Positions 3,106 to 23,140 of a DNA stretch of 32,704 nucleotides are shown one piece after another. The translations under genes and the position numbers were made by a program. The DNA lies in contig CAWDVP010000007.1 in the NCBI GenBank assembly GCA_963805945.1, forward strand, positions 1 to 32,704, given 5' to 3'. The notes under the pieces are model-generated. The model had not been told where the DNA came from. It did not search any database and saw nothing but the letters and a program-made list of their open reading frames with translations. Positions within the stretch are counted from its first letter, which is position 1, and each line of letters starts with the position of its first letter. Source of the stretch: Vulcanimicrobiota bacterium (GTDB lineage: Bacteria; Vulcanimicrobiota; Vulcanimicrobiia; Eremiobacterales; Eremiobacteraceae).

Positions 3106-4041
3106 ATGAGCACGACCGTCAGCGGAAACGCGCCGCTCGTCGGAGCACCGCGTGCCGGCAAGCGCGCCTTGTTGCTCCTCAACCAAGACGCGCGTCAGGT
3201 CGACGAGCACGGTCTCGATGTGACGGCGCGCTTGCGCGACTCCGGGTTCACGGTCGTGCAGCCGGCGCTCAGCGACAGGGCATCGGTCGCGACGGCGATC
3301 CGCGAAAATGCTTCTACGACCGATCTCGTCATCGCCGGCGGCGGCGACGGCACGCTCAACGCAGTGCTTCAGGCACTCGTCGGGACCGGATTGCCGCTCG
3401 GCATCATCCCCTTGGGCACCGCGAACGATCTGGCGAAGACCCTAGGGCTGCCCTCGGATCCAAAGGCCGCGTGCGACGTGATCGCGCATGGGGAGTTGCG
3501 CCGCATCGATGCCGGCTGCGTGAACGGCACGTACTTCTTCAACGAGACCAGCATCGGCATGAGCCCGACGGTCTCCCGCGCGCTGTCCAAGGACGCGAAG
3601 GCCGCGCTGGGCGTGTTCGCCATCCTCGAAAAAGCCATTCGCATCATGGCACGCATGCGGCGCTTCACCGCACTGGTGCGATGTGACGGCGAAGAACACG
3701 TCCTGCGCACGGCGCAGCTCACCGTCGGCAATAGCAAGAACTTCGGCGGCTTCGTCGGCAGCGACGACGCCGAGATCGACGATCGCCGGCTGGACCTGTA
3801 CAGCGTCGCGTTCAGGCATTGGTGGTCGTACTTCGAGGTGCTCGTATCGCTCATCCGCCGCCGCTACGATGACGCCGGCTCGGTGTTCACCTTGCACGGA
3901 CGCATGTTCGAGGTCAGCACGCACAAGCCCAAGGCGATCGAGGCCGACGGCGAGATCGTCTCGATGACTCCCGCGCGCATCTGGATCGTGCCGCGCGCCG
4001 TTTCGGTCTTCGTGCCTCCCACAGAACGCCGGACCGCATGA
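3106..4041 (+). CDS. YegS/DgkB/BmrU-family lipid (diacylglycerol) kinase
   Basis: GGGDGTLN, IPLGTANDLA and ADGE motifs. Confidence 0.92.
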   Translation: MSTTVSGNAPLVGAPRAGKRALLLLNQDARQVDEHGLDVTARLRDSGFTVVQPALSDRASVATAIRENASTTDLVIAGGGDGTLNAVLQALVGTGLPLGIIPLGTANDLAKTLGLPSDPKAACDVIAHGELRRIDAGCVNGTYFFNETSIGMSPTVSRALSKDAKAALGVFAILEKAIRIMARMRRFTALVRCDGEEHVLRTAQLTVGNSKNFGGFVGSDDAEIDDRRLDLYSVAFRHWWSYFEVLVSLIRRRYDDAGSVFTLHGRMFEVSTHKPKAIEADGEIVSMTPARIWIVPRAVSVFVPPTERRTA

Positions 4042-4568
4042 GGTTCGGCAATCCTCGCCGAGCTCTGCGACCGCTGCAGTGGGTCGATCGCGTGACCTCT
4101 ATTTCGCTCGACGAGTTGAAATCGGACGGAATTCGTGCGATCATCATCGACTTGGACAACACATTGGTGGGCTATGACCGCGTCGAGCCCGAGCCGGGGG
4201 TCGCCGAATGGGTGCGTCGCGCTCAGACGAGCGGTTTCGCGATCGCGATCGTGTCGAATAACGTGCGCGCCTGGGTCAGCAGCATCGCGACGCAGCTCGG
4301 AATCGTCACCTACGTGCATACCGCTCTCAAGCCGCTGCCGTTCGGCTTGTTCAAGGCCGTACGGCAGCTGCGCGTCGCCCGATCGGCGACGGTCGTGGTC
4401 GGCGACCAGCTCTTCGCCGACGTGCTGGCCGCCAAACTGCTCGGGATCCGCGCGATCCTGACAGACCCGATCGAGGCGCACGAGCACCGCGCCATGTGGC
4501 TGGTCCGGCTGCTCGAGCGCTTCATGCTGCTCGGCACACCCCGCCGCACCCCCACGCCCATCGACTAG
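4038..4568 (+). CDS. yqeG: YqeG-family HAD-IIIA phosphatase
   Basis: DLDNTL, VSNN, KP and VVGDQLFADV motifs; ATGA overlap with the kinase. Confidence 0.9.
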   Translation: MRFGNPRRALRPLQWVDRVTSISLDELKSDGIRAIIIDLDNTLVGYDRVEPEPGVAEWVRRAQTSGFAIAIVSNNVRAWVSSIATQLGIVTYVHTALKPLPFGLFKAVRQLRVARSATVVVGDQLFADVLAAKLLGIRAILTDPIEAHEHRAMWLVRLLERFMLLGTPRRTPTPID

Positions 4569-5479: not shown

Positions 5480-7234
5480 ATGCGCCCCGTGCCAACGCGC
5501 GATACGGCGCGGACGATCATCGCCGCCGGCGCAACCGCTGCGGTGGTCATACTGCTGGCGATCCAAGGCTGGTCGCTGCCGCACGAGGGCAGTCCGAACG
5601 CCGCCGCGTCGAGCGACGGCGCGTGCGCCGTCCGCATCACGGAGTCGTCGGGCGCGTTGGCCGCGGCCGGGCTGCGTGTCGGGGACGACGTCGATCTGCG
5701 CGCGGCAGAGCCGCTGACGCGATTGTTCTTCATCGACGCTTCGCCGATCGCGGACGAGCCGCTCTCACTGCCCGTGGTGCGGCCTGCAGGTTTGGCGACG
5801 GTCCGTGCCGTCGGCGCGGACGCTGTGCCGGTGCGCGGCTGGGTCACCGGCTTCATCGTGAAGATCGTCATCTTCTTGCTGGGGCTGCTCGTGCTGTGGC
5901 GCGGCCGCGATCGCGCGTCGCTGTTCTTCGGCATCTCGAGCCTCGCGATCTGCGCCGCGATGTATCCCGCGCCCGCCTTCCTGCCGTCGCTCGGCGGCCG
6001 CGTCGCGCTCGTGGTCGCGGTCGCGCTGCTCGCCGAGGTCGCCGCGTTTTTCTTCTATCTCATGCTCGAGCAGTTCGCGCGCGGCAACGTCTCGGAACGG
6101 CTGCTCGCGGTGACCCGCATCGTGGTCGTCGCCGCCGTGGCGGTTTTGATCGCAGACGATTTCATCTTCCCCATCGGGCGCGTCGCGACCGGCTGCATCA
6201 GCGTTCCGCTGCACGCGGTCCATCTGCCCGCCTACATGGCCGTGCTTGTCGCGTCGCTCGTCGTGCTGGCGACAGCGTTCATCGGCTCGCGGGGCGAGCA
6301 GCGCCAACGTCTGCGCTGGATCTTCTGGTCCACCGCGGTCGGGTTCTCCGGCGTGTTCATCTATATCGCCGGCCAGTTCGCCGGCTGGCACATCCCGGTC
6401 TATCCGCTCACGAACATCACCGCGGTCGCCATCCCCATCGGCTACTCGTACGCGATCCTGCGCCACCGCGTCATCGACGTCAATTTCGTGCTCAATCGAG
6501 CGCTCGTGTTCGCGGCCTCGACGACCGTCGTGTTCGGCGTCTTCGCGCTGCTCGGCAGCTATATCGAAAAGGCGGCGGTGGGCGAGCGCACGAGCCTCAT
6601 CTTGCAGGTGGCGGTCGCGCTCGGCGTGGCGTTCTCGTTCAAATGGCTCCAGGACCGCTTCGACACGATCGTCGACCGGCTGTTCTTCCGTCAACGCTAT
6701 GCGGCTGAGGCCGCGATCCGCCAGACGATCGAAGAAGTGTCCTTCGTGCGCGACGGCGCGACGCTGCTCGCGCGCGTCGCCGCCGCGCCGGTCGAGCAGC
6801 TGCACGCGCGCGGCGCCGCCATCTATCTCGACGGCGACGGCTCGTACCGCCTCGCCGCCGCCGCGGGTGAGTGGTCGAGCGTCAAGACGGTCGACGCGGA
6901 CGACCCGGCGTTCGTGCGCCTGCGCGCCACGCTGCATGAGGTGGAGCTCGACGACGTGCCGTCGGCGCTCGGGCGGGGCGTGGCGCTGCCGATGGGGCTG
7001 CAGGGCCAACTCTCAGGCGCCCTGGTATGCGCGCCGCGCGCGTCGGACGAGCGCTACGACCCGGACGAAGTGGAGATCTTGCGGTCGCTCGCGCATCAGC
7101 TCGCGCTCTCGCTGACCGCGCTCGACGCGCGCGAGTCGCTGCTGCTCATGCGGGCGCTGGCGGATGGCACGGTGACGCCGCCGGAGGCGCTCGAAAGAGC
7201 GCGTTCGTTAAGCACCAGGGAATGGAGGACGTGA
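5480..7234 (+). CDS. Polytopic membrane protein with PDZ-like loop and C-terminal GAF-like domain, no output domain
   Basis: AAAGLRVGD (PDZ-like); about 8-9 TM helices; YAILRHRVIDV and VDRLFFR linkers; ALPMGLQGQLSGALVC...YDPDEVEILRSLAHQLA (GAF-like). Confidence 0.7.
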   Translation: MRPVPTRDTARTIIAAGATAAVVILLAIQGWSLPHEGSPNAAASSDGACAVRITESSGALAAAGLRVGDDVDLRAAEPLTRLFFIDASPIADEPLSLPVVRPAGLATVRAVGADAVPVRGWVTGFIVKIVIFLLGLLVLWRGRDRASLFFGISSLAICAAMYPAPAFLPSLGGRVALVVAVALLAEVAAFFFYLMLEQFARGNVSERLLAVTRIVVVAAVAVLIADDFIFPIGRVATGCISVPLHAVHLPAYMAVLVASLVVLATAFIGSRGEQRQRLRWIFWSTAVGFSGVFIYIAGQFAGWHIPVYPLTNITAVAIPIGYSYAILRHRVIDVNFVLNRALVFAASTTVVFGVFALLGSYIEKAAVGERTSLILQVAVALGVAFSFKWLQDRFDTIVDRLFFRQRYAAEAAIRQTIEEVSFVRDGATLLARVAAAPVEQLHARGAAIYLDGDGSYRLAAAAGEWSSVKTVDADDPAFVRLRATLHEVELDDVPSALGRGVALPMGLQGQLSGALVCAPRASDERYDPDEVEILRSLAHQLALSLTALDARESLLLMRALADGTVTPPEALERARSLSTREWRT

Positions 7235-7239
7235 CCGCT

Positions 7240-8763
7240 ATGGCCCTCGCGGTGAACGACTACACGGTGCTGAAGAGCGTGCGCGCGGTCTGCCCGCGTT
7301 GCTTTGCGGAGACACCCGACTTCGATCCGGAGTGGCCGGACGATATCGCGGACGGCCATCTGGTCCGTCGCGGCGATAGCGTGTATGTGCGCCGGATGTG
7401 CCGCCGCGGACACGGCGAGGTGTGGTCGCTCTACGAAGAGGACTACGCGCTGTGGGACTACCTGCAGCAGTGGCGCGTGCCGACGAAGGTCATCAATCCG
7501 GACACGCGCGAACTGTTCCCCGCGCCCACGGGCTACGAGCACGGCCTCGGGCCGGGCCATCTGCAGCACACCTGCATCTTCTTGCTCGACATCACGTCGC
7601 AGTGCAACTTGTCGTGCCCCGCCTGCTATGCCGGCTCGAGTCCCCAGCAGACGCAGTACGTGCCGCTCGACGGCATCAAGCATGCGGTGGAGACGGCGAT
7701 CGCGCGCGAGGGCGGCCACCTCGACGTCGTCATGATCAGCGGCGGCGAGCCGACGGTGCATCCGCAGATCGTGGAGATCCTGCGCGCCATCGCGGCGCTG
7801 CCGGTGACGCGCGTGCTGCTCAACACGAACGGCATCCGCCTCGCCTCCGACGACGGGCTGCTCGCCTTCTTGGCGGAGCACCGCGACCGCATCGAGGTGT
7901 ATCTGCAGTACGACGGCCAGCGCGAAGACACGCAGCGCTATCTGCGCGGCCAGGACCTGCGGCCGATCAAAGAACGCGTGCTCGAACGCCTCTCGGCGCA
8001 CGAGGTGTTCGCGACGCTCGTCATGGTGGTGAGCGAGCAGAACGCCGATCTCATCGGCGCGGTTCTCCACACCGCGTTCGCCACGCCGTACGTGGGCGGC
8101 GTGATGTTCCAGCCGGTGTTCGCCTCGGGCCGCGCGCCCGGCATCGACGGCATGCGGCGGGTGACGACGACGGGCGTGCTGCGCCGCATCGAGACGCAGA
8201 CCGCCGGCCGGGTGAAGGCCCGGGACCTCATCGCGCTGCCTTGCAGCCATCCCGATTGCTGCTCGATCGGCTATTTCCTCAAGGACAAGCACGGCGCTTT
8301 CCACGGGCTCGCGCGCGTGCTCGGCCACGACGTGCTGCGGGCCAATCTCGGCGTCATCGGCAACAGCATCACGTTCTCCGATACGCTGGCGAGCGTGCGC
8401 GACGCGCTCGCCGGCCTCATGTCCGAATCCATGACCTTGTCGCGGCCCGAACTGGTGGGGCATCTGGCGACGCTGTGCAGCAGCTGCGACTTCGGCGGTC
8501 TCACGCAGTTGATCGCCGCGGCGTTCCGCAAAGGCGCATCCCATGAGTTCGTCGGCGCCCGGGTGAAACGCGTGACCATCAAGCATTTCATGGATGCGGA
8601 CACGCTCATCGCCGAGCGGCTCGAGCAGTGCTGCGTCCATGTGGGCAGCGCGGGCAACGACCCGGTGCGCATGCCGTTCTGCGCGGCGCGGCTCTTTCCA
8701 AAAGTGCGGGCGAAGGCGCTCGAAGGCTCGACGACTCGCGCGGCCGTAGCGCCGCACACCTGA
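7240..8763 (+). CDS. Radical SAM enzyme of the Tes/GDGT-MAS (MJ0619, COG1964)-like family
   Basis: CNLSCPAC (CX3CX2C), SGGEPTVHP, LNTNG. N-terminal CPRC...CRRGHG metal site. C-terminal KHFMD...ERLEQCCVH...PFCA. Alternative start GTG 7231. Confidence 0.85.
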   Translation: MALAVNDYTVLKSVRAVCPRCFAETPDFDPEWPDDIADGHLVRRGDSVYVRRMCRRGHGEVWSLYEEDYALWDYLQQWRVPTKVINPDTRELFPAPTGYEHGLGPGHLQHTCIFLLDITSQCNLSCPACYAGSSPQQTQYVPLDGIKHAVETAIAREGGHLDVVMISGGEPTVHPQIVEILRAIAALPVTRVLLNTNGIRLASDDGLLAFLAEHRDRIEVYLQYDGQREDTQRYLRGQDLRPIKERVLERLSAHEVFATLVMVVSEQNADLIGAVLHTAFATPYVGGVMFQPVFASGRAPGIDGMRRVTTTGVLRRIETQTAGRVKARDLIALPCSHPDCCSIGYFLKDKHGAFHGLARVLGHDVLRANLGVIGNSITFSDTLASVRDALAGLMSESMTLSRPELVGHLATLCSSCDFGGLTQLIAAAFRKGASHEFVGARVKRVTIKHFMDADTLIAERLEQCCVHVGSAGNDPVRMPFCAARLFPKVRAKALEGSTTRAAVAPHT

Positions 8764-8764
8764 T

Positions 8765-8790
8765 GTAGGGGCCGATCTTTAGATCGGCCC
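8765..8790 (+). repeat. GTAG-type REP, family A
   Basis: GTAG-GGGCCGATCT-TT-AGATCGGCCC hairpin; related copies at 23142-23205 and 27425-27490. Confidence 0.8.
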
Positions 8791-8792
8791 GT

Positions 8793-8816
8793 GGAGCGGT
8801 CGAATTCATTCGACCG
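8793..8816 (+). repeat. REP, family B
   Basis: GGAG-CGGTCGAAT-TC-ATTCGACCG; related copies at 9388, 29370 and 31114. Confidence 0.75.
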
Positions 8817-8826
8817 GAACGAGACG

Positions 8827-9102
8827 ATGACCGACACCGAAAGCGTTCTCCCCACCCCGCGCCAACAACGCGGCGAAGAGATCGAAGGCCTGGCGTTCAC
8901 GTTCTGCAAGGCCGCCGCCCTCGCGCTCATCTTCCAGAAGTACACGCTGCTCGCCACGGCGGGCATCGCGACAGTGCTTTACCTCTATGCGGCGTCGTTG
9001 GGCGTGCGCGAATGGCGCTGCTTCGTGAAGCCGCCCTGGGTCGTCATCATCATGGCGGGTCTCACCGCGTTCCAAGTCTACTGGCTCTTCCTGCGGACCT
9101 AA
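8827..9102 (+). CDS. Small membrane protein with two Cys (91 aa)
   Basis: ATG 8827 after the REP pair; hydrophobic helices; FTFCK and WRCF. Confidence 0.75.
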   Translation: MTDTESVLPTPRQQRGEEIEGLAFTFCKAAALALIFQKYTLLATAGIATVLYLYAASLGVREWRCFVKPPWVVIIMAGLTAFQVYWLFLRT

Positions 9103-9105
9103 GCC

Positions 9106-9354
9106 ATGGAAGCGGAGCCGACGAAGCCCTGCCGCACGTGCGGCACCCCGGTCGAGCCCAACGCCGCGTTCTGCCCGCAGTGCGGTGAGCACATGCCGGG
9201 GTATCCGGCGAGCGAAGTGCAGGCGCGCCACAAGCGCGATATGCGCAGCCTCTCTATCGCGCTTGCGGCGTTCCTCGGCTGCGGACTCATCGTGCTCACC
9301 GCGGTCGTGCTAGGCGCGCTCGCGGTGTGCAACGGCTTGACGCACAACCTGTAG
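9106..9354 (+). CDS. Zinc-ribbon membrane protein with C-terminal LGALAVC motif (82 aa)
   Basis: CRTCG-x9-FCPQCG ribbon, one long TM helix, starts 3 nt after the upstream stop. Confidence 0.8.
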   Translation: MEAEPTKPCRTCGTPVEPNAAFCPQCGEHMPGYPASEVQARHKRDMRSLSIALAAFLGCGLIVLTAVVLGALAVCNGLTHNL

Positions 9355-9387
9355 GGCAGTGCGCGGTGGCGGCCGAACGAATCATAT

Positions 9388-9411
9388 ATAGCGGTCGAGC
9401 TTGCTCGACCG
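9388..9411 (+). repeat. REP, family B variant
   Basis: ATAG-CGGTCGAGC-TT-GCTCGACCG; compensatory stem changes relative to other copies. Confidence 0.7.
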
Positions 9412-9448
9412 TGCCCGAGCGCAGCTCGGAGAAGCGTCGGAGCGCAGC

Positions 9449-10141
9449 ATGATCGTGTCAGCGGTGTTCTACGGTCTTGGCTACCTCGCAGGTTTGGCGG
9501 CGTTCGCGCTCATGGCGCGCAAACGCGGGATCGCGACCTCCGGTATTTGGACGCTCATGAGCGCAGGCCTCATCGGCGGTCTCGCCGGCGCGAACATCAC
9601 GCAGCTCCTCGTCACCGGTTCGCCGGGCAAGACCCTGCTCGGCGGCATCATCTTCGGCTACCTCGCGGTCATCATCGCGAAGCGCACGCTTGGCATCACC
9701 CGGCCCACCGGCGACCTGTTCGCGATGGCGCTCGCCGCCGGCGAAGCCGTCGGCCGCTGGGGCTGCTTCTTCGGTTTGTGCTGCTACGGCAAGCTCGCGG
9801 CGAACCTGCCATGGGCGGTCTACGAGCACGGCGCGTATCGCCACCCGACACAAGCCTATCTCGCACTGGCCGCGACAGGCGTCTTCTGCATCCTGTGGCA
9901 GCTGCAGAAGAAACCGCTGCCGGAAAACGCGCTGTTCTACGCCCAAGGGATGCTGTTCTGCGCCGCGCGCTTCGGCATCGAGTTCTTCCGCGAGGCGCCG
10001 GCGATTCTCGGCGGATTCACGCTGGCGCAGCTGGCGTGCACGGCCGGCTTCGTGTTCTTCGCATATAAGATGTACGGACTGCTCGCCGAGAAGGAGCGCG
10101 TGCCATCGCTGACACTTGCGCCAACTGCGGCCACGAGCTAG
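9449..10141 (+). CDS. Divergent prolipoprotein diacylglyceryl transferase (Lgt)-family protein
   Basis: FYGLGY, GKTLLGG, GRWGCFFGLCCYG, LPWAV, RHPTQAY, RFGIEFFRE; GGAG SD before ATG 9449. Confidence 0.85.
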   Translation: MIVSAVFYGLGYLAGLAAFALMARKRGIATSGIWTLMSAGLIGGLAGANITQLLVTGSPGKTLLGGIIFGYLAVIIAKRTLGITRPTGDLFAMALAAGEAVGRWGCFFGLCCYGKLAANLPWAVYEHGAYRHPTQAYLALAATGVFCILWQLQKKPLPENALFYAQGMLFCAARFGIEFFREAPAILGGFTLAQLACTAGFVFFAYKMYGLLAEKERVPSLTLAPTAATS

Positions 10142-10497
10142 CCGCCGGGGCGCTCGTCTGCCCGAACTGCGGCGCCGCCATCCCGACCAAGCCTGGGGAA
10201 GAAGGCGCGGGGACGGTGGTCGCCGGCGCGGTGGGCGGTCTCGCGGTGGGCTGCTTCGTCGGCTTTCTCGTCGGGTTCTCTTTGGTGGCCATCGCCTACT
10301 CGCTCACCTCGCATCTCCTCATGGCGCACAGCAGGCAGCTCGTATCGATAGGCACCGATATCGTCGTGGTGCTGCTCGCCGTTTGGGCTCTCATGGCCGT
10401 CAGAACCAAGCCGCATCGGTATTTCTTGGCGGCCGCGATTATCACGACGACCGTGGTGGCGCTCGGCGCCTTTTCGGTCTGCGGGCCTCAGAACTAA
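10105..10497 (+). CDS. Zinc-ribbon three-TM membrane protein with C-terminal LGAFSVC motif (130 aa), probable ATC start
   Basis: The frame of ORF 10216..10497 extends upstream to encode CANCGHELAAGALVCPNCG. AAGGAG lies 8 nt before in-frame ATC 10105. In-frame stop at 10066-10068. Confidence 0.7.
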   Translation: MADTCANCGHELAAGALVCPNCGAAIPTKPGEEGAGTVVAGAVGGLAVGCFVGFLVGFSLVAIAYSLTSHLLMAHSRQLVSIGTDIVVVLLAVWALMAVRTKPHRYFLAAAIITTTVVALGAFSVCGPQN

Positions 10498-10510: not shown

Positions 10511-11554
10511 ATGATCCTGCATGGCGACCTCGACGCGTTCTACGCGGCCGTCGCGCAACGCGATGACCCCGCCCTCCGCGGCAAGCCGCTCGTCGTCGCT
10601 GGGCGGAGCCGGCGCGCGGTCGTGCTCACCGCGTCATATGAAGCGCGGCCGTTCGGCATCCGCAGCGCGATGCCGCTGTACCGCGCGCTCCAGAGCTGCC
10701 CCGATCTCATCGTGGTGCCGCCCTCGTTCGACAGCTACCGCGAGGCGAGCCGAGCCGTCTTCGCGATCTTGCGGAGCAGCGCGGCCACGGTCGAAGGGCT
10801 TTCGATGGACGAAGCGTTCTGCGATCTCGGAGAGGTCGCGCTGCCCGCTGCGCTCGCGCTCGGGCGGAAGATCAAAGATGACGTGCGCGCCGCAACAGGC
10901 TTGACGATGTCGATCGGCATCGCGAGCGGCAAGATCGTGGCGAAGATCGCGAGCGACGACGGGAAACCCGATGGGCTGGTCGGGGTACCCCCTGGCACCG
11001 AGGCCGCGTACCTCGCGTCGAAACCGATCGGCCGGCTGTGGGGGATCGGCCCGAAGACCGAAGCGCGGCTGAACGCGCGGGGCATCGAGCGCATCGAGCA
11101 GATCGCCGCGCTCGATGACGGCGCCGTGCACGCGCTGTTCGGGCGCTGGGGCAAGGACGTGCGCGAGATGGCGCGCGGCGTCGATCACCGCAGGGTGAGC
11201 GAGGGCGATGGCGTGCGATCGATCTCGAGCGAAGAGACGTTCGAACACGACGTCGCCAGCATCGACGAGCTGCTTCGCATCGTCCGGGTCCAAGCCGACG
11301 AGATCGCCGAGCGTCTCAAGAGGAAACAGCTGTGCGCGTATACGGTCGGCGTCAAGGTGAAGCTCTCGGATTTCTCGCTCGTCGGGCGCCAGACGTCGCT
11401 CGCACAGCCCACCGACGACGCGCGGATCATCAACGCCGCCGCTGCCTTTTGCCTGCGCCGCGCGGATCCGCCCAAACCGGTGCGGCTAATCGGGGTGCGG
11501 GTCGCGTCGCTCGTGCAACGGGAAGCGCGCCAAATCGGGTTGTTCGGATCTTAG
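10511..11554 (+). CDS. dinB: DNA polymerase IV (Y family)
   Basis: HGDLDAFYAAV, ASYEARPFGIRSAMP, SMDEAF, KIASDDGKPDG, LWGIG. Confidence 0.93.
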   Translation: MILHGDLDAFYAAVAQRDDPALRGKPLVVAGRSRRAVVLTASYEARPFGIRSAMPLYRALQSCPDLIVVPPSFDSYREASRAVFAILRSSAATVEGLSMDEAFCDLGEVALPAALALGRKIKDDVRAATGLTMSIGIASGKIVAKIASDDGKPDGLVGVPPGTEAAYLASKPIGRLWGIGPKTEARLNARGIERIEQIAALDDGAVHALFGRWGKDVREMARGVDHRRVSEGDGVRSISSEETFEHDVASIDELLRIVRVQADEIAERLKRKQLCAYTVGVKVKLSDFSLVGRQTSLAQPTDDARIINAAAAFCLRRADPPKPVRLIGVRVASLVQREARQIGLFGS

Positions 11555-12539: not shown

Positions 12540-13382
12540 CTAGCTCGGATGACCGGCATGAGCCAAAGGACGGAGATACAAGAGTGTGAACAGCACGAAA
12601 TTGACGACGCCATGGGTCGCGATCGGTGCCCAGATGTTACGAGCACGATAGTAGACCCATGCTTGGAATAGGCCAAACGTTGTCAGGGTCGGCAGAGCAT
12701 ACGGTTCGAAGTGCCAGAGCCCGAAGAGGATTGAGCTTGCCAGTGCGGCCGGCAGTGGCGCCATTCGCTGCGCGAGCCCCGCGAAGAGCAGGCCCCTGAA
12801 TAGGGTCTCCTCCGCTATAGGCGACACTAACGAAGCTTGAAGTATGTCGAGCGCGTACGCGAGCGGACCATGATGTCCGGCGATGATGCGGGGCCACGGG
12901 CCTACGTGCGAGCCTACGAAATGGGTCCAGATCCATTGGACGATTCCAGCGGCGAACAATGCAAGGATGCCGACACCCGCTCCGAAGCCGATCTGCGACG
13001 CGGTGGGTTTGATAAAGCCTAACGAGCGCATGGAGCTCGCTGGCAAGAGCCCACGCAGGCAGTACACAGTCGCGACTGCTGCAAGCGAGCGAATTGATAC
13101 CGCGACAGAAACCTTGACGGGACTCTCGACGGCCGCCAGAAGCATGGGATCGTGGCGCATCTTACTCAGGAGCGCGATAAGGCCTGGGAGACTGCGCGCC
13201 TCCGGATACATCCATGCGGCGATCGCCCAGTCGGCCAGCGCGTTCGACAAAAACAGGGCGACGATGCCGGCAATAAACACGATCGCAAGGCCCCAGCCGC
13301 GCCACGCGCCGGCTTGGAATGCCGCTTGCTCGAGGACTCGGTTGCCTGCCATGGGCGAAACCGCTGCGTCAGACACGTCCAC
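12540..13382 (-). CDS. CPBP (CAAX/Abi) family intramembrane glutamic endopeptidase
   Basis: EETLFRG, FGLWH, HGVVN motifs. Start uncertain (alternative ATG 13352). Confidence 0.88.
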   Translation of the reverse strand: MDVSDAAVSPMAGNRVLEQAAFQAGAWRGWGLAIVFIAGIVALFLSNALADWAIAAWMYPEARSLPGLIALLSKMRHDPMLLAAVESPVKVSVAVSIRSLAAVATVYCLRGLLPASSMRSLGFIKPTASQIGFGAGVGILALFAAGIVQWIWTHFVGSHVGPWPRIIAGHHGPLAYALDILQASLVSPIAEETLFRGLLFAGLAQRMAPLPAALASSILFGLWHFEPYALPTLTTFGLFQAWVYYRARNIWAPIATHGVVNFVLFTLLYLRPLAHAGHPS

Positions 13383-13896: not shown

Positions 13897-14874
13897 ATGC
13901 CGGCCGACAGGCTCCCGGTCATCAAGCAGCCGATGCTGCCCACGCTCACCGACACGCCGTTCGACGACGACGAATGGCTGTTCGAGCTCAAGTGGGATGG
14001 CATCCGCGCGATCTGCACCATCCGCGGCAAGGGCGAATGCGAGCTCGTCTCGCGCAACGGTCTCTCGCTCAACAAGAAATTCCCCGAGCTCGACGGCGTC
14101 GAAAAAGAATTCGCGCGAGCGCCGCTCATCGTCGACGGCGAGATCGTGAGCCTCGACACACGAGGGCGCTCGTCGTTCCAACGGCTGCAGCGACGCTTCA
14201 AACCGAAGCCCGGCGCCAAGCCGATTGAGACAGGCACGATCGTCTTCGCCGTCTTCGATCTGCTCTACGACGGCCGATCAGATCTGCGGCGCCGCCCGCT
14301 CGAAGAGCGGAAGGCCGCGCTCGAAAAAGCCATACGATCGGGCGTGAAGCGCGTCATCGTGTCCAAGCACGTGGTCGGCACGGGGAAGAAGCTCTTCGCC
14401 TTGGCGCGGGCGCAATCGCTCGAGGGCATCGTCGCCAAGCGGCGCGACTCCACGTATCAAGAGCGGCGCTCGCGCGATTGGCTCAAGATCAAGACGCACC
14501 TCGAGCAAGAATTCGTGGTCGGCGGCTGGACCGACCCGCAGGGCAGCCGCAAGGGGTTCGGCGCGCTGCTGGTCGGGGTATACGAACGCGGTAAGCTCGT
14601 GTTCTGCGGCGGCGTCGGCAGCGGCTTCGACGGCGAACTGCTGAAATCGATCTCCGCGAAGCTCAAACCCCTGGCGACGCGGACCTGCCCGTTCGATGCG
14701 CCGCCGCCCACCGCGATCGAGAAGACAAGCCATTGGGTGAAGCCGAAGCTGGTCGCCGAAGTGAAATTCGGCGAGTGGACCGCCGAGGGGCTGCTGCGCC
14801 AGCCGGTCTTCCTCGGTCTGCGCACCGACAAAGATCCCAAAGATATCGTCCATGAGAGGCCGGTCGAGCGATGA
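13897..14874 (+). CDS. ligD: LigD-type ATP-dependent DNA ligase (stand-alone ligase domain)
   Basis: ELKWDGIR, DGEIV, FDLL, EGIVAKR, WLKIK, LRQPVFLGLRTDK. Confidence 0.9.
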   Translation: MPADRLPVIKQPMLPTLTDTPFDDDEWLFELKWDGIRAICTIRGKGECELVSRNGLSLNKKFPELDGVEKEFARAPLIVDGEIVSLDTRGRSSFQRLQRRFKPKPGAKPIETGTIVFAVFDLLYDGRSDLRRRPLEERKAALEKAIRSGVKRVIVSKHVVGTGKKLFALARAQSLEGIVAKRRDSTYQERRSRDWLKIKTHLEQEFVVGGWTDPQGSRKGFGALLVGVYERGKLVFCGGVGSGFDGELLKSISAKLKPLATRTCPFDAPPPTAIEKTSHWVKPKLVAEVKFGEWTAEGLLRQPVFLGLRTDKDPKDIVHERPVER

Positions 14875-16439
14875 AGGGCTCATTGCGCGAGTACAAGCGC
14901 AAGCGCGATTTCAAACAGACGAGCGAACCCGCGGGCACGGTGAAGCGCAGCGGCACGCAGCGCTTCGTCGTGCAGAAGCATCGCGCGTCGCACCTCCACT
15001 ACGATTTTCGGCTCGAGGCGGGCGGCGTGCTCAAGTCGTGGGCGGTGCCGAAAGGGCCGTCGCTCGACCCGGCGGACAAGCGGCTCGCGATGCAGGTCGA
15101 AGACCATCCGCTTGATTACTTCAGCTTCGAAGGGGTGATCCCGCACGGCAATTACGGCGCGGGCGACGTGATCGTATGGGACTACGGCACGTACACGCTC
15201 TTCGAGGGGACGAACCCGGCGGCCGAGATAGGCGCGGGCAAGATCAAGTTCATCCTCCACGGCAAGAAGCTCAAGGGCGAGTTCACGCTGGTGAAGATGC
15301 GCGGGCGAAATTCGAGCGACAACGCGTGGCTGCTCGTCAAAGACAAGGATCGTTATGTCGCCCCGACGTGGGATGCCGAAGATCACGCGCGCTCGGCGAA
15401 GACCGGCCGCACCCTCGATGAAGTGTCGGCCGATCCGCGCTCGAAGAAATGGATCAGTAATCGCAGCGCCGCCGCAAAGAAGCCGTCCGCGGCGCGCTCG
15501 AAGCCGGCCGCCGCCCCAGGCCTGCCGACGCTGACCAACCTCGATAAAGTGCTGTGGCCCAACGACGGCTACACCAAAGGCGAGCTGATCAAGTACTATC
15601 TGACGGTCGCGCCGTGGCTGCTGCCGTATCTGAAGGATCGCCCGCTGTCGTTGCAGCGTTTTCCCAACGGGATCACCGGCGAATCGTTCTTCGAAAAGCA
15701 GCTCCCCAAGGGCGCGCCTGACTGGGTGCGGACTCATGCGATCCCGACGGACACCGGCAAGCGCGCGAAGATCGACTATGTCGTGTGCGACGACGAGCGC
15801 ACGCTGGCGTGGCTCGCGAACCTCGCGGCGATCACCATCCACGCGTGGCTGTCGCGGGTGGGCTCGCTCGGCTCGCCGGATTATAGCCTCTTCGACCTCG
15901 ATCCGCAAGCTGGCTGCACCTTGGCCACGCTCGCCAAAGTCGCGCTGCTGTTGCGCGACGAGCTGGAGTCGCTCGGCATGACGCCGGCGGTGAAGACGTC
16001 CGGCGGCAAGGGCCTGCACGTCATGATGCGGCTCGCGCCAGGTTATGACTATTCAGAGGTGCGCCGTTTTTCAGAACTGATCGCGCGCCGCCTCGAGGCC
16101 GAGCACGGCGAGGACATCACGCTCGAGCGCATGGTGAAGAAGCGGCCGCGCGGCACCGTCTATCTCGATTGGGTGCAGGTCGGCGAAGGCAAGACCATCG
16201 TCATGCCGTTCATCGTGCGGCCGCGGCCGAAGGCGCCGGTGTCGTGGCCGTTGGCATGGTCCGACGTCGAGCGCATGGCCCGTTCGCGCGCACCGGATCT
16301 GTTGGGCGAAGCCGCGCGTTTCAACATCACCACCGCGCCGGCGCTGCTGAAGAAGAAGGGCGACGCCTGGAGCGCGCCCATGAAGAAGCAGCAACGGCTC
16401 GAGCCGGCGCTCAAGAAAGCGCAGAAGCTCTGGACGTGA
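14871..16439 (+). CDS. ligD: LigD 3'-phosphoesterase plus primase-like polymerase fusion, lacking the ligase domain
   Basis: PE: FVVQKHRASHLHYDFRLE, SWAVPKGPS. POL: LTNLDKVLWP, FDLDP, KTSGGKGLHV. ATGA overlap with the ligase gene. Confidence 0.9.
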   Translation: MKGSLREYKRKRDFKQTSEPAGTVKRSGTQRFVVQKHRASHLHYDFRLEAGGVLKSWAVPKGPSLDPADKRLAMQVEDHPLDYFSFEGVIPHGNYGAGDVIVWDYGTYTLFEGTNPAAEIGAGKIKFILHGKKLKGEFTLVKMRGRNSSDNAWLLVKDKDRYVAPTWDAEDHARSAKTGRTLDEVSADPRSKKWISNRSAAAKKPSAARSKPAAAPGLPTLTNLDKVLWPNDGYTKGELIKYYLTVAPWLLPYLKDRPLSLQRFPNGITGESFFEKQLPKGAPDWVRTHAIPTDTGKRAKIDYVVCDDERTLAWLANLAAITIHAWLSRVGSLGSPDYSLFDLDPQAGCTLATLAKVALLLRDELESLGMTPAVKTSGGKGLHVMMRLAPGYDYSEVRRFSELIARRLEAEHGEDITLERMVKKRPRGTVYLDWVQVGEGKTIVMPFIVRPRPKAPVSWPLAWSDVERMARSRAPDLLGEAARFNITTAPALLKKKGDAWSAPMKKQQRLEPALKKAQKLWT

Positions 16440-20915: not shown

Positions 20916-20989
<74 letters not shown>

Positions 20990-21031
20990 GATCCGCAAAC
21001 GCGAACGTCAAGCGAAGCGGCGCCGTCCTTC

Positions 21032-23140
21032 TTGGCGGCGCCTATCGGCGTGCTCGGCACGCTGAAGAAGAGCACGCGCGACCAGCTCGAGCGGCTCGAG
21101 CTGCGCACGGTGCACGATCTGCTGCGCCACTACCCCTATCGCTACGACGACCTGCGTGCGCCCGCCAGCGTCGCGGATCTGCAGGCGCAGCGCAGCGCCG
21201 GCCATCTGCCCGAGGGCGAAGCCAACCTGCTCGGCGTCATCACGCAGGTGAAGCATATCCGGCTGCGCGGCCGTATCCGCGCCAAGACGACCGCACTAGT
21301 CGATGACGGCACCGGCACGATCACGGCGATCTGGTTCGGCCGGCCGTACCTCGGCACGCAGTTGCGCGCCGGCCAGCGTCTCTTCATGCGCGGCCGCGTC
21401 GATTTCACCCTCACCGGCGTCCAACTGCTCGTGTCGCGGCATCGCGTCATCGCCGAAGGCGAGGAGTACAGCGGCGAGCTCGTGCCGGTCTATCCATTGA
21501 CGTCGGGCCTCGCGAACTATACTTTGCAGCGGCTCATCGGCAAGGCGCTGCCCAAGGCGCTCGCCGACGAAGCGCTCGCGCCGTCGCTTGATCCGCTGCC
21601 GGGTCGCGTGAGCGCGAAGCGCAAGCTCGTCGACGCGCGTTGGGCGCTGCGTGCCATCCACGCGCCGCGCTCGATGGAGGACGCCCAGAAAGCGCGCGCT
21701 CGGCTCATCTTCGAAGAGTTCTTCCTGCTCGCCACGGCGGCCGCGCTCCGGCGCGCCGCGCGACAGGGTGAGGCGGCGCCGGATCTTTCCGCGGCGACGC
21801 AGGCACCGGCCTTGCGCGAATTCCACGCCGCCATCGCCGGGCTGCTGCCGTTCACGCTCACCGGCGCGCAAGAGCGCGTGATCCGCGAGATCGTCAGCGA
21901 CCTCGGCAAGCCGACGCCGATGAACCGGCTGCTGCAGGGCGACGTCGGTTCGGGCAAGACGGCGGTGGCGGCGGCGGCGGTGCTGCTGACCGTGCGCGCC
22001 GGGTACCAGGCGGCGTTCATGGCGCCGACCGAGATCCTCGCGGCCCAGCAGTTCAATGGGTTGACGAAACTGCTCGCGCCGGCCGGCGTGCGCATCGCGA
22101 TGCTCGTCGGCGCGCTGCGGCGCGCGACGCGCGATGACATCCTCGATCAGATGCGCCGGGGGGAGCTCGACGTCGTCGTCGGCACGCATGCGCTGCTCAC
22201 CGAGGACGTGGAGTTCTCCGCGTTAGGGCTGGTCGTCATCGACGAACAGCATCGCTTCGGCGTGATGCAGCGCGCCGCGCTGCGCGCTAAGGCGAAGCAG
22301 GCCGTCCCCCACACCCTCGTCATGACGGCGACGCCGATCCCGCGCACCCTCGCGCAGACGGTCTACGCAGACCTGGACATCTCTGTGATCGACGAACTGC
22401 CGCCCGGGCGCACGCCGCCGAAGACCTACGTGCGCACCGCGGACGGCAAGGGGAAGATCTTCGCGTTCATCCGCGAGCAGATCGCGGCGGGCAGGCAGGC
22501 CTACGTCGTATGCCCGGCGATCGACGATTCCGAACGCGCCATCCACTCCGCAGTGGAGGAGGCCGAGAAACTGCGCGCCACCGAATTGAAAGGGCTGCGC
22601 GTCGCGCTGCTGCACGGCAAGATGAGCGGGCCAGAAAAAGAGAAGATCATGCGCCTGTTCGCGGACGGCTTTCTGCAAGTGCTCATCACGACGACGGTGG
22701 TCGAGGTCGGCGTCGACGTGCCCAACGCGACGGTGATGCTGGTGCTCGACGCGCAGTCGTTCGGCTTGGCGCAGCTGCACCAGTTGCGCGGCCGCGTCGG
22801 CCGCGGTGCCGAGGCGTCGTACTGCATCCTCGTGGCGACGGGCGATGCGGAGGAATCGGCACGCCTGAAGATCCTCGAGAAGGTGAGCGACGGTTTCGTC
22901 ATCTCGGAGGAAGACGCCAAGATACGCGGATCGGGGGACATCCTCGGCACGCGCCAGCACGGCATCGCCGATTTCCGGCTCGCGCACCTCATCCGCGACT
23001 ACCCCATCTTCTTGGATGCCAAGAAGGACGCCGATGCGCTCATCGCCCGCGACCCTGGTCTGCAAGCGCCGGAGCATGCCGCTCTGGCGGCGTTCGTGGC
23101 CGCGCAGAGCGCGGAGGCGGTGCTGCGAGCCTCCTCTTGA
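21032..23140 (+). CDS. recG: ATP-dependent DNA helicase RecG
   Basis: LLQGDVGSGKT, DEQHRFG, MTATPIPRTL, QLHQLRGRVGRG. Start uncertain; TTG 21032 is the first canonical start after the tRNA. Confidence 0.95.
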   Translation: MAAPIGVLGTLKKSTRDQLERLELRTVHDLLRHYPYRYDDLRAPASVADLQAQRSAGHLPEGEANLLGVITQVKHIRLRGRIRAKTTALVDDGTGTITAIWFGRPYLGTQLRAGQRLFMRGRVDFTLTGVQLLVSRHRVIAEGEEYSGELVPVYPLTSGLANYTLQRLIGKALPKALADEALAPSLDPLPGRVSAKRKLVDARWALRAIHAPRSMEDAQKARARLIFEEFFLLATAAALRRAARQGEAAPDLSAATQAPALREFHAAIAGLLPFTLTGAQERVIREIVSDLGKPTPMNRLLQGDVGSGKTAVAAAAVLLTVRAGYQAAFMAPTEILAAQQFNGLTKLLAPAGVRIAMLVGALRRATRDDILDQMRRGELDVVVGTHALLTEDVEFSALGLVVIDEQHRFGVMQRAALRAKAKQAVPHTLVMTATPIPRTLAQTVYADLDISVIDELPPGRTPPKTYVRTADGKGKIFAFIREQIAAGRQAYVVCPAIDDSERAIHSAVEEAEKLRATELKGLRVALLHGKMSGPEKEKIMRLFADGFLQVLITTTVVEVGVDVPNATVMLVLDAQSFGLAQLHQLRGRVGRGAEASYCILVATGDAEESARLKILEKVSDGFVISEEDAKIRGSGDILGTRQHGIADFRLAHLIRDYPIFLDAKKDADALIARDPGLQAPEHAALAAFVAAQSAEAVLRASS

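Follow-up and report, generated by a model that had tools for sequence, protein, structure and literature searches.

The archaeal enzyme GDGT-MAS, also called Tes (MJ0619; structures 7TOL and 7TOM), is an enzyme of the radical S-adenosylmethionine (SAM) type that, according to the available part of its description (PMC9433317), has a rubredoxin-like CX2C...CX2H iron site and a further cluster, [4Fe-4S]N, held by C73, C77, C80 and a histidine; it binds phosphatidylglycerol-type lipids and couples the ends of their tails via a C-S bond to a C-terminal cluster. For bacterial Tes homologs the function is left open in the available texts of two other papers (PMC8941075, PMC13159169). Lgt, whose E. 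coli structure is 5AZB, is characterised by a motif of 13 residues (Y26, H103, G104, G142, R143, G145, N146, E151, G154, Y235, R239, E243 and R246), and its conserved residues are placed on the periplasmic side in the accessible part of a study of this family (10.1101/2025.03.27.645668). Here we describe a locus in which relatives of both enzymes are encoded side by side: five genes at positions 7240-10497 of a stretch of 32,704 nucleotides from a Vulcanimicrobiota bacterium (the whole stretch is called the window below). They encode a radical SAM enzyme (C), a small membrane protein with two cysteines (D), two zinc-ribbon membrane proteins with a cysteine in the last transmembrane (TM) helix (B1 and B2, together B) and an Lgt paralog (A).

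Other described systems are also close to parts of this locus. TrsS, a radical SAM (seleno)protein whose NCBIfam model is the best-scoring curated one for C, was found in the literature only as a name in a selenoprotein table (PMC13188914), with nothing on its function or neighbours. Mss, from Thermotoga and Thermoanaerobacter, resembles C in being a radical SAM enzyme with a proposed role in coupling the acyl tails of bacterial phospholipids, but in the available parts of its descriptions it is reported as a separate radical SAM family from anaerobes, and that description sets it apart from C (PMC13159169, PMC13459092). On the side of Lgt, the second homolog of M. smegmatis, MSMEG_5408, carries the changes Y26H and N146C and is credited, in the accessible text, with 'presumed low Lgt activity' (10.1101/2025.03.27.645668). 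The same two changes are the signature of actinobacterial A (His26 in 65 of 75 paralogs, Cys146 in 74), and MSMEG_5408 is a candidate member of the module only. Neither of two papers on Lgt, one of them the available part of that study, mentions a radical SAM neighbour of Lgt or of MSMEG_5408, a literature search aimed at the neighbours of MSMEG_5408 gave nothing of use, and our searches brought up no publication that connects an Lgt-type gene to a radical SAM gene of the Tes type; in the available text of the 2026 review of lipid-modifying radical SAM enzymes (PMC13459092), the terms 'Lgt' and 'diacylglyceryl' have no occurrences. A preliminary description of the locus had stated that no characterised pathway combines these parts, and the literature searches likewise found none.

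A four-part module kept in three phyla

Together the five genes make up a single membrane module of four parts, which is kept in Eremiobacterota, Chloroflexota and Actinomycetota. A check of the open reading frames (ORFs) of the window found all of them on the + strand and tightly packed, as the preliminary description had claimed; in the order C-D-B1-A-B2 the gaps are 63, 3, 46 and -37 nucleotides. To follow the module beyond the window we scanned one genome per species, which gave 593 related stretches, and kept the best 80 as loci (42-71% identity); these belong to the three phyla named above and correspond to three phylum-level clades.

The preliminary description had staked its reading on homologs of C occurring together with Lgt-like genes, and they do: by a family hidden Markov model (HMM), A is the same-strand neighbour of C in 77 of the 80 loci. 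Clustering gave the same result and phmmer gave 74/80, and in the three loci where A is missing (L012, L020 and L054) C lies within 2.3 kb of the end of its contig. Small Cys-bearing proteins had been expected near C as well, and they were found there, D in 68/80 loci and B in 64/80 to 77/80, depending on how B is counted. All four parts occur together in 59 loci, and in these they are arranged in 16 different gene orders, which argues for selection on the linkage and not for frozen synteny. The order C-D-B-A-B is unique to the window among the related loci. This linkage, taken with the invariant cysteines reported below, points to a functional module whose chemistry at the membrane concerns thiols and lipids.

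The four protein families

C (7240-8763, + strand) is a protein of 507 amino acids, with a Pfam Radical_SAM match of 63 bits and a weak match to Zn_ribbon_HMPTM; an alternative start at ATG 7222 is suggested by the stored protein P0002, which has 513 amino acids. Its score against the TrsS model NF045646 is 213.6 bits over nearly the full length, far under the cut-off of 490, and against the Tes model NF045702 it is 176.1 bits, where the cut-off is 450; two actinobacterial relatives reach 150.7 and 135.8 bits against the latter, and none of 24 more distant representatives attained the Tes or the TrsS cut-off. The closest solved relative is GDGT-MAS (7TOL, phmmer E=7.7e-34). An AlphaFold model of C, built with 40 sequences (mean predicted local distance difference test score, pLDDT, 84.7), was compared with known structures by Foldseek, and it matched GDGT-MAS 7TOM over the whole chain (TM-score 0.78, E=1e-32, 524 columns), while the runner-up, SkfB, had a TM-score of 0.35.

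The invariant residues of C include three groups: the rubredoxin-like site C18-x2-C21...C54-x3-H58 (CX2C-X32-CX3H), the radical SAM motif C122-x3-C126-x2-C129 (CX3CX2C) and the C-terminal cysteines C335, C340, C413, C416, C464, C465 and C481. Of the last group, C335, C340, C464, C465 and C481 are common to the superfamily and Cys413 is an extra, clade-specific residue; the CC...C region aligns with residues 454-493 of 7TOL, the ligand residues being assigned by alignment only. The cysteine triad of the [4Fe-4S]N cluster is gone, since in the window Ala, His and Gly stand where GDGT-MAS has C73, C77 and C80. We aligned 155 sequences, comprising the 80 related loci and 75 other full-length representatives of the superfamily. 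No related locus (0/80) has Cys in the columns equivalent to C77 and C80, whereas the same segment holds at least three Cys in 63 of the 75 other representatives and none in 11. In the tree (FastTree, LG+gamma, midpoint-rooted), the window, all 80 loci and six representatives form one clade with a support of 0.98, within which Actinomycetota (51 tips), Chloroflexota (25) and Eremiobacterota (10) are subclades, each with a support of 1.0. Homologs close to C (67-81% identity) carry the labels Eremiobacterota, Baltobacteraceae or Elarobacter.

C therefore belongs to the Tes/GDGT-MAS/TrsS superfamily and is not a Tes, because its scores lie below the cut-offs, the triad is lost and it forms a clade of its own. 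The label 'Tes-like radical SAM' given in the preliminary description holds for the architecture, which is that of GDGT-MAS in its fold, its rubredoxin-like Cys/His site, its CX3CX2C motif and its C-terminal CC...C, but C stands outside the Tes equivalog. It differs from GDGT-MAS also in the extra Cys413, in being bacterial and in having, in every case, an Lgt paralog and membrane proteins with Cys as partners. We also considered C as a RiPP maturase of the SPASM type (RiPP, ribosomally synthesised and post-translationally modified peptide) and rejected this: it scores 39 bits against AlbA (cut-off 850) and 29 bits against SkfB (cut-off 300), and these matches cover the radical SAM core only.

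A (9401-10141, + strand) starts with TTG, with an ATG at 9449. It matches Pfam LGT (PF01790) with 79 bits (cut-off 24.9), but against the lgt equivalog TIGR00544 it scores 47.6 bits, and two relatives 73.4 and 90.5, where the cut-off is 118.9. In its structural model (pLDDT 90.2) the sole match in the PDB at E<=1e-3 is E. coli Lgt 5AZB, with a TM-score of 0.69. The alignment of A contains 75 paralogs, namely the window and 74 loci, and is numbered on E. coli Lgt. The window reads S L G G R G C C G F R E R at the 13 motif sites; eight of these are kept (G104, G142, R143, G145, G154, R239, E243 and R246) and five are changed (Y26S, H103L, N146C, E151C and Y235F). Across the paralogs, position 146 is Cys in 74/75, Arg143 and Gly154 are kept in 74/75, and Arg239, Glu243 and Arg246 in 73/75. 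Tyr26 is replaced by His in 65 of the 75, and by Ala or Ser in Eremiobacterota; the site of His103 is always Leu, Ile, Glu or Val, and never His, Tyr or Trp. The head domain is shortened, residues 165-177 of E. coli Lgt being missing. The preliminary description had called A a divergent Lgt, and the LGT domain and the fold agree with this, but Tyr26, His103, Asn146, Glu151 and Tyr235 are lost. Distant Lgts with N146 and E151 as 'CD or CC' are reported in the available part of the Lgt study (10.1101/2025.03.27.645668).

Two observations concern A in particular lineages. The Cys-Cys pair at positions 151/152 occurs only in Eremiobacterota (L002, L004-L006, L008, L021 and the window), and the B proteins of this phylum are alone in having no Gly at position -2 from the cysteine (G..x.C and not G.C); the two may represent a co-variation of enzyme and acceptor within a single lineage. 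A is also reduced to a fragment in L071 (9660-9887) and split into two ORFs in L027 (3595-4446) and L043 (8465-9351), which could be decay or assembly error.

The B proteins are a set of membrane proteins that have a Cys in the last TM helix, roughly one turn before the outer end. B1 (9106-9354, + strand; Zn_Ribbon_1, 29.9 bits) has a zinc ribbon and one TM helix and ends in ...LGALAVC-NGLTHNL, with the Cys seven residues before the end. B2 (10105-10497, + strand; Zn_Ribbon_1, 30.7 bits) has a zinc ribbon and three TM helices and ends in ...LGAFSVC-GPQN, with the Cys four residues before the end. For the zinc-ribbon part of B2 no ATG, GTG or TTG is available in frame after the upstream stop (10069-10215); AAGGAG precedes ATC 10105 by eight nucleotides, and this ATC is likely the start of B2, a rare start codon, and the gene would then overlap the last 37 nucleotides of A.

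Two methods were used to find B in the other loci, with 'near' meaning within 3.5 kb. An iterated HMM found it in 45/80 loci at E<1e-3; all 73 near matches are on the strand of the module, and far from it only four weak matches occurred (E>=0.69). The second method was a pattern that demands a K/R patch, then 18 hydrophobic residues that carry no charge and have a Gly among the final six, then a Cys and another 3-22 residues up to the end. A strict G-x-C motif had missed the B proteins of Eremiobacterota, including those of the window, and the looser pattern was used instead; it was devised after examples had been seen, and its flank controls are clean. Among near ORFs on the same strand it matched 67 of 2606, spread over 57 loci, against 0/2638 near ORFs on the opposite strand, 0/4334 far ORFs on the same strand and 0/4407 far ORFs on the opposite one. 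Within the window it matched two of 400 ORFs of at least 45 amino acids, exactly B1 and B2. The union of HMM and pattern gives 64/80 loci, 49 of them with one B gene, ten with two and five with three, and the figure becomes 77/80 once 14 ORFs found by inspection or phmmer (L013 protein) are counted.

In these proteins Gly stands at -2 from the Cys in 70/87, and positions -1 and +1 to +4 are hydrophobic. The Cys is preceded by a K/R patch and about 20 hydrophobic residues, an arrangement that resembles a lipoprotein signal peptide with its n- and h-regions. The preliminary description had pointed to a cysteine in the zinc-ribbon proteins, and a Cys close to where the last TM helix ends on the outer side is indeed conserved, in their relatives too. 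The N-termini differ, being a zinc ribbon in Eremiobacterota, the only phylum in which B has one, and Pro-rich in Actinomycetota. In a subgroup of Limnocylindria the protein continues past the Cys with a linker of poly-Pro and a domain of some 150 amino acids, which fits a C-terminus facing outward. No curated Pfam or NCBIfam family specific to the module matched B, the only match being Zn_Ribbon_1 for the zinc-ribbon part, and the look-alikes of B2 in the Atlas are generic zinc-ribbon clusters only, below 0.9.

D (8827-9102, + strand) is a protein of about 91 amino acids with three TM helices; its ORF opens at GTG 8791, and ATG 8827 is the likely start. It stands directly downstream of C in 68 of the 80 loci, and the 12 misses consist of three contig ends and nine real absences (seven Mycobacterium loci, L056 and L079). 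Two Cys (Cys27 and Cys65, numbered from 8827), a Tyr and a Gly stand unchanged in 66/66 sequences, and in 57/57 in a second count. Both cysteines are predicted to be cytoplasmic, because a K/R-rich loop carries the second one. The two cysteines noticed in the preliminary description are thus invariant, but they would lie on the wrong face for an active site of the Lgt type. D matched no family in Pfam or NCBIfam; at least 3259 clusters belong to it, none with a Pfam domain and each labelled 'hypothetical', and its Atlas look-alikes (0.92-0.93) are unnamed 'hypothetical' clusters as well.

The seven Mycobacterium loci without D downstream (L040, L050, L063, L072, L073, L075 and L080) keep A, a Pro-rich B and C, and in L080 the gene after C is on the opposite strand. 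A search for fusions of D, with seven sequences inspected, found one stored protein, P0278, in which the C-terminus of C is joined in frame to D, and which we treat as anecdotal. The apparent C-D fusions P0275, P0276, P0279 and P0292 were rejected, as they read an alternative frame of the 3' end of C and are likely frameshift artefacts.

What the module may do

The reading that we favour, tentatively, is that A lipidates the Cys of B and that C, held by D, then tailors the lipid, giving a lipid-modified membrane protein. The parts, their families, their conserved linkage, the invariant cysteines and the predicted topology are shown by the results above, whereas for this reading we infer the joint action of the parts, the identity of the acceptor and every chemical step. 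A would bind a phosphoglycerolipid through the kept site formed by Arg143, Arg239, Glu243 and Arg246, using an active site rebuilt around Cys146 and, in most lineages, His26. It would act on the Cys of B, which in the last TM helix stands roughly one turn short of the outer end, the acceptors in the window being the two zinc-ribbon proteins B1 and B2, and would most likely attach a diacylglyceryl-type lipid to it as a thioether. C, held or assisted by D at the cytoplasmic face, would use its kept C-terminal auxiliary cluster for radical chemistry of the Tes type on the lipid tails, either C-C coupling or formation of a C-S link. The outcome would be a membrane protein with a covalent lipid modification or, if cleavage follows, a short lipopeptide.

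Several observations weigh against this reading. A has lost Asn146, His103 and Tyr26, three of the 13 residues counted as conserved or catalytic in Lgt, and it is MSMEG_5408, the paralog with the same changes Y26H and N146C, that is credited with 'presumed low Lgt activity'. The canonical lipobox [LVI][ASTVI][GAS]C is found in 0/87 B proteins, whose motif is instead G-hydrophobic-C within the helix; the residue at -1 is bulky, four more hydrophobic residues follow the Cys, and the tail past it is short and unconserved, with a median of 11 amino acids. As C is cytoplasmic and the Cys of B lies at the outer leaflet, the two steps would take place on opposite faces of the membrane. D is missing in nine loci although their contigs continue past C, and it is therefore not obligatory everywhere. 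The counts themselves are not independent events, since the 80 loci are the nearest of 593 and represent only three clades.

A somewhat less probable explanation is that only lipids are modified: A would extract or present a phosphatidylglycerol-type lipid and C would modify its tails, with B and D as unmodified scaffolds, anchors or regulators of a synthase complex, and the products would be macrocyclic or membrane-spanning bacterial lipids. We consider both this complex and this product rather unlikely. It is consistent with the full GDGT-MAS architecture of C and with the binding of bacterial phospholipids and archaetidylglycerol by GDGT-MAS, as given in the available part of its description (PMC9433317), and bacterial Tes homologs have been proposed, in the accessible text of PMC8941075, as makers of membrane-spanning lipids. 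A, moreover, keeps the Arg and Glu residues that bind the head group and loses those proposed for activation of the acceptor thiol. The same explanation leaves without a role, however, the one to three variable B genes with one conserved Cys that travel with the module, and the invariable Cys at position 146 of A. Against it we also count that the carrier genera Nocardia, Mycobacterium and Microbacterium are not known for membrane-spanning lipids. In diabolic-acid producers, furthermore, no Tes homologs were found, according to the available part of PMC13159169.

Lipidation of B by A, as preferred above, has a more specific form that we regard as unlikely. In it, A with its Cys active site would give a glycerolipid to the buried Cys at the helix end, and C would couple the tails across the bilayer; the partner in the coupling may be an inner-leaflet lipid or the Cys of D at the cytoplasmic face. 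Such a modification would amount to a new kind of protein lipidation.

Quite improbable, in our view, is a thiol or iron-sulfur relay in which the cysteines of A, B and D would be metal ligands for C, or would pass redox equivalents or sulfur to it, and the Lgt fold would be a non-catalytic scaffold. The loss of the [4Fe-4S]N triad in the clade of C (Cys in the C77/C80 columns in 0/80, against at least three Cys in 63/75 outside it) speaks for such a relay, as do the two invariant Cys that D brings to the cytoplasmic face, its nearly constant position next to C and the in-frame fusion recorded in P0278. However, the Cys of B and Cys146 of A lie toward the outer leaflet, distant from a cytoplasmic cluster, A keeps a lipid-phosphate site that a mere scaffold would not need, and D is missing in the Mycobacterium loci.

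A RiPP-like lipopeptide is doubtful to a still greater degree. B would here be a precursor with a long leader, made of the zinc ribbon or Pro-rich region and the TM helices, and the C-terminal piece starting at the Cys would be lipidated, modified by C and cut off. One to three tandem, fast-evolving B genes per locus, with a conserved Cys and a short tail (median 11 amino acids), are in keeping with a precursor of this kind. However, neither a protease nor an exporter is conserved alongside the module among the 80 loci, the tails are unconserved and partly hydrophobic, one subgroup carries a folded domain of about 150 amino acids past the Cys in place of a short core, and C is not a peptide maturase of the SPASM type (AlbA, 39 bits against 850).

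That A is a redundant housekeeping Lgt lying by chance near an unrelated radical SAM gene is hardly credible: two lgt genes do occur in about 1300 of 12956 genomes, as stated in the available part of the Lgt study (10.1101/2025.03.27.645668), but the same-strand adjacency of A and C in 77/80 loci, over three phyla and 16 gene orders, shows that the grouping is not chance, Asn146 is invariably changed to Cys in A, and the scores of A (47.6, 73.4 and 90.5) all lie under the lgt cut-off of 118.9.

Surroundings in the window and meaning of the module

The G+C content of the window is 61-70% along its length. In the 63-nucleotide gap between C and D, positions 8770-8789 contain a perfect palindrome of 8 bp, GGCCGATC ttta GATCGGCC, which could form an RNA hairpin. 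No promoter-like sites were found in the window, and all terminator-like matches in it lie inside genes. An Rfam scan of the window gave as sole match a transfer RNA (tRNA) at 20916-20986 (67.5 bits). The RecG ORF (20930-23140) is listed with GTG 20930 as its first start, which this tRNA overlaps, so that the true start of RecG is farther downstream.

Upstream of the module and on its strand, the genes of a DAGK_cat/YegS-type lipid kinase (3106-4041) and of a HAD hydrolase (4038-4568) whose match is PGP-phosphatase-like share four nucleotides; both proteins are lipid-head-group enzymes, and a PPK2 gene and a GAF membrane protein stand between this pair and the module. The latter, a large protein with multiple TM helices and a C-terminal GAF domain (5480-7234), ends six nucleotides before C, and it accompanies the module in one of the 80 loci, where it is distant and on the other strand. 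Downstream there is a DNA repair cluster, which precedes RecG, with DinB (Pol IV) at 10511-11554 and an ATP-dependent ligase and a LigD phosphoesterase/primase-polymerase pair at 13897-16439. On the - strand, at 12540-13382, a CPBP/Rce1-like 'CAAX' intramembrane protease is encoded, which is found in 0/80 related loci. In eukaryotes, proteases of the CPBP/Rce1 type trim the residues past a Cys that has been lipidated, and the short tails of B make this suggestive. As parts of the module five neighbours were rejected: the GAF protein and DinB were each found in 1/80 loci, and PPK2, an epimerase and the CPBP protease in none.

The module appears to be previously undescribed and would join two known kinds of chemistry, lipidation of the Lgt type and lipid tailoring of the Tes type. 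It is widespread, with 593 related stretches and at least 3259 clusters of D, and it occurs in culturable, non-exotic genera, with Nocardia salmonicida, Knoellia locipacati and a Microbacterium among the culturable carriers. It makes two questions testable together, namely the role of bacterial Tes homologs and the role of the 'second Lgt' with Y26H/N146C in mycobacteria and their relatives, and it defines two unnamed protein families whose invariant cysteines offer clear mutational handles. If tails were indeed coupled across the bilayer, protein-anchored macrocyclic or membrane-spanning lipids would be present in common soil Actinomycetota, Chloroflexota and Eremiobacterota. Should the product be a membrane protein modified by lipid, or else a cross-leaflet lipid, bacterial protein lipidation would gain a new branch, and the interpretation of lipid biomarkers would be affected too.

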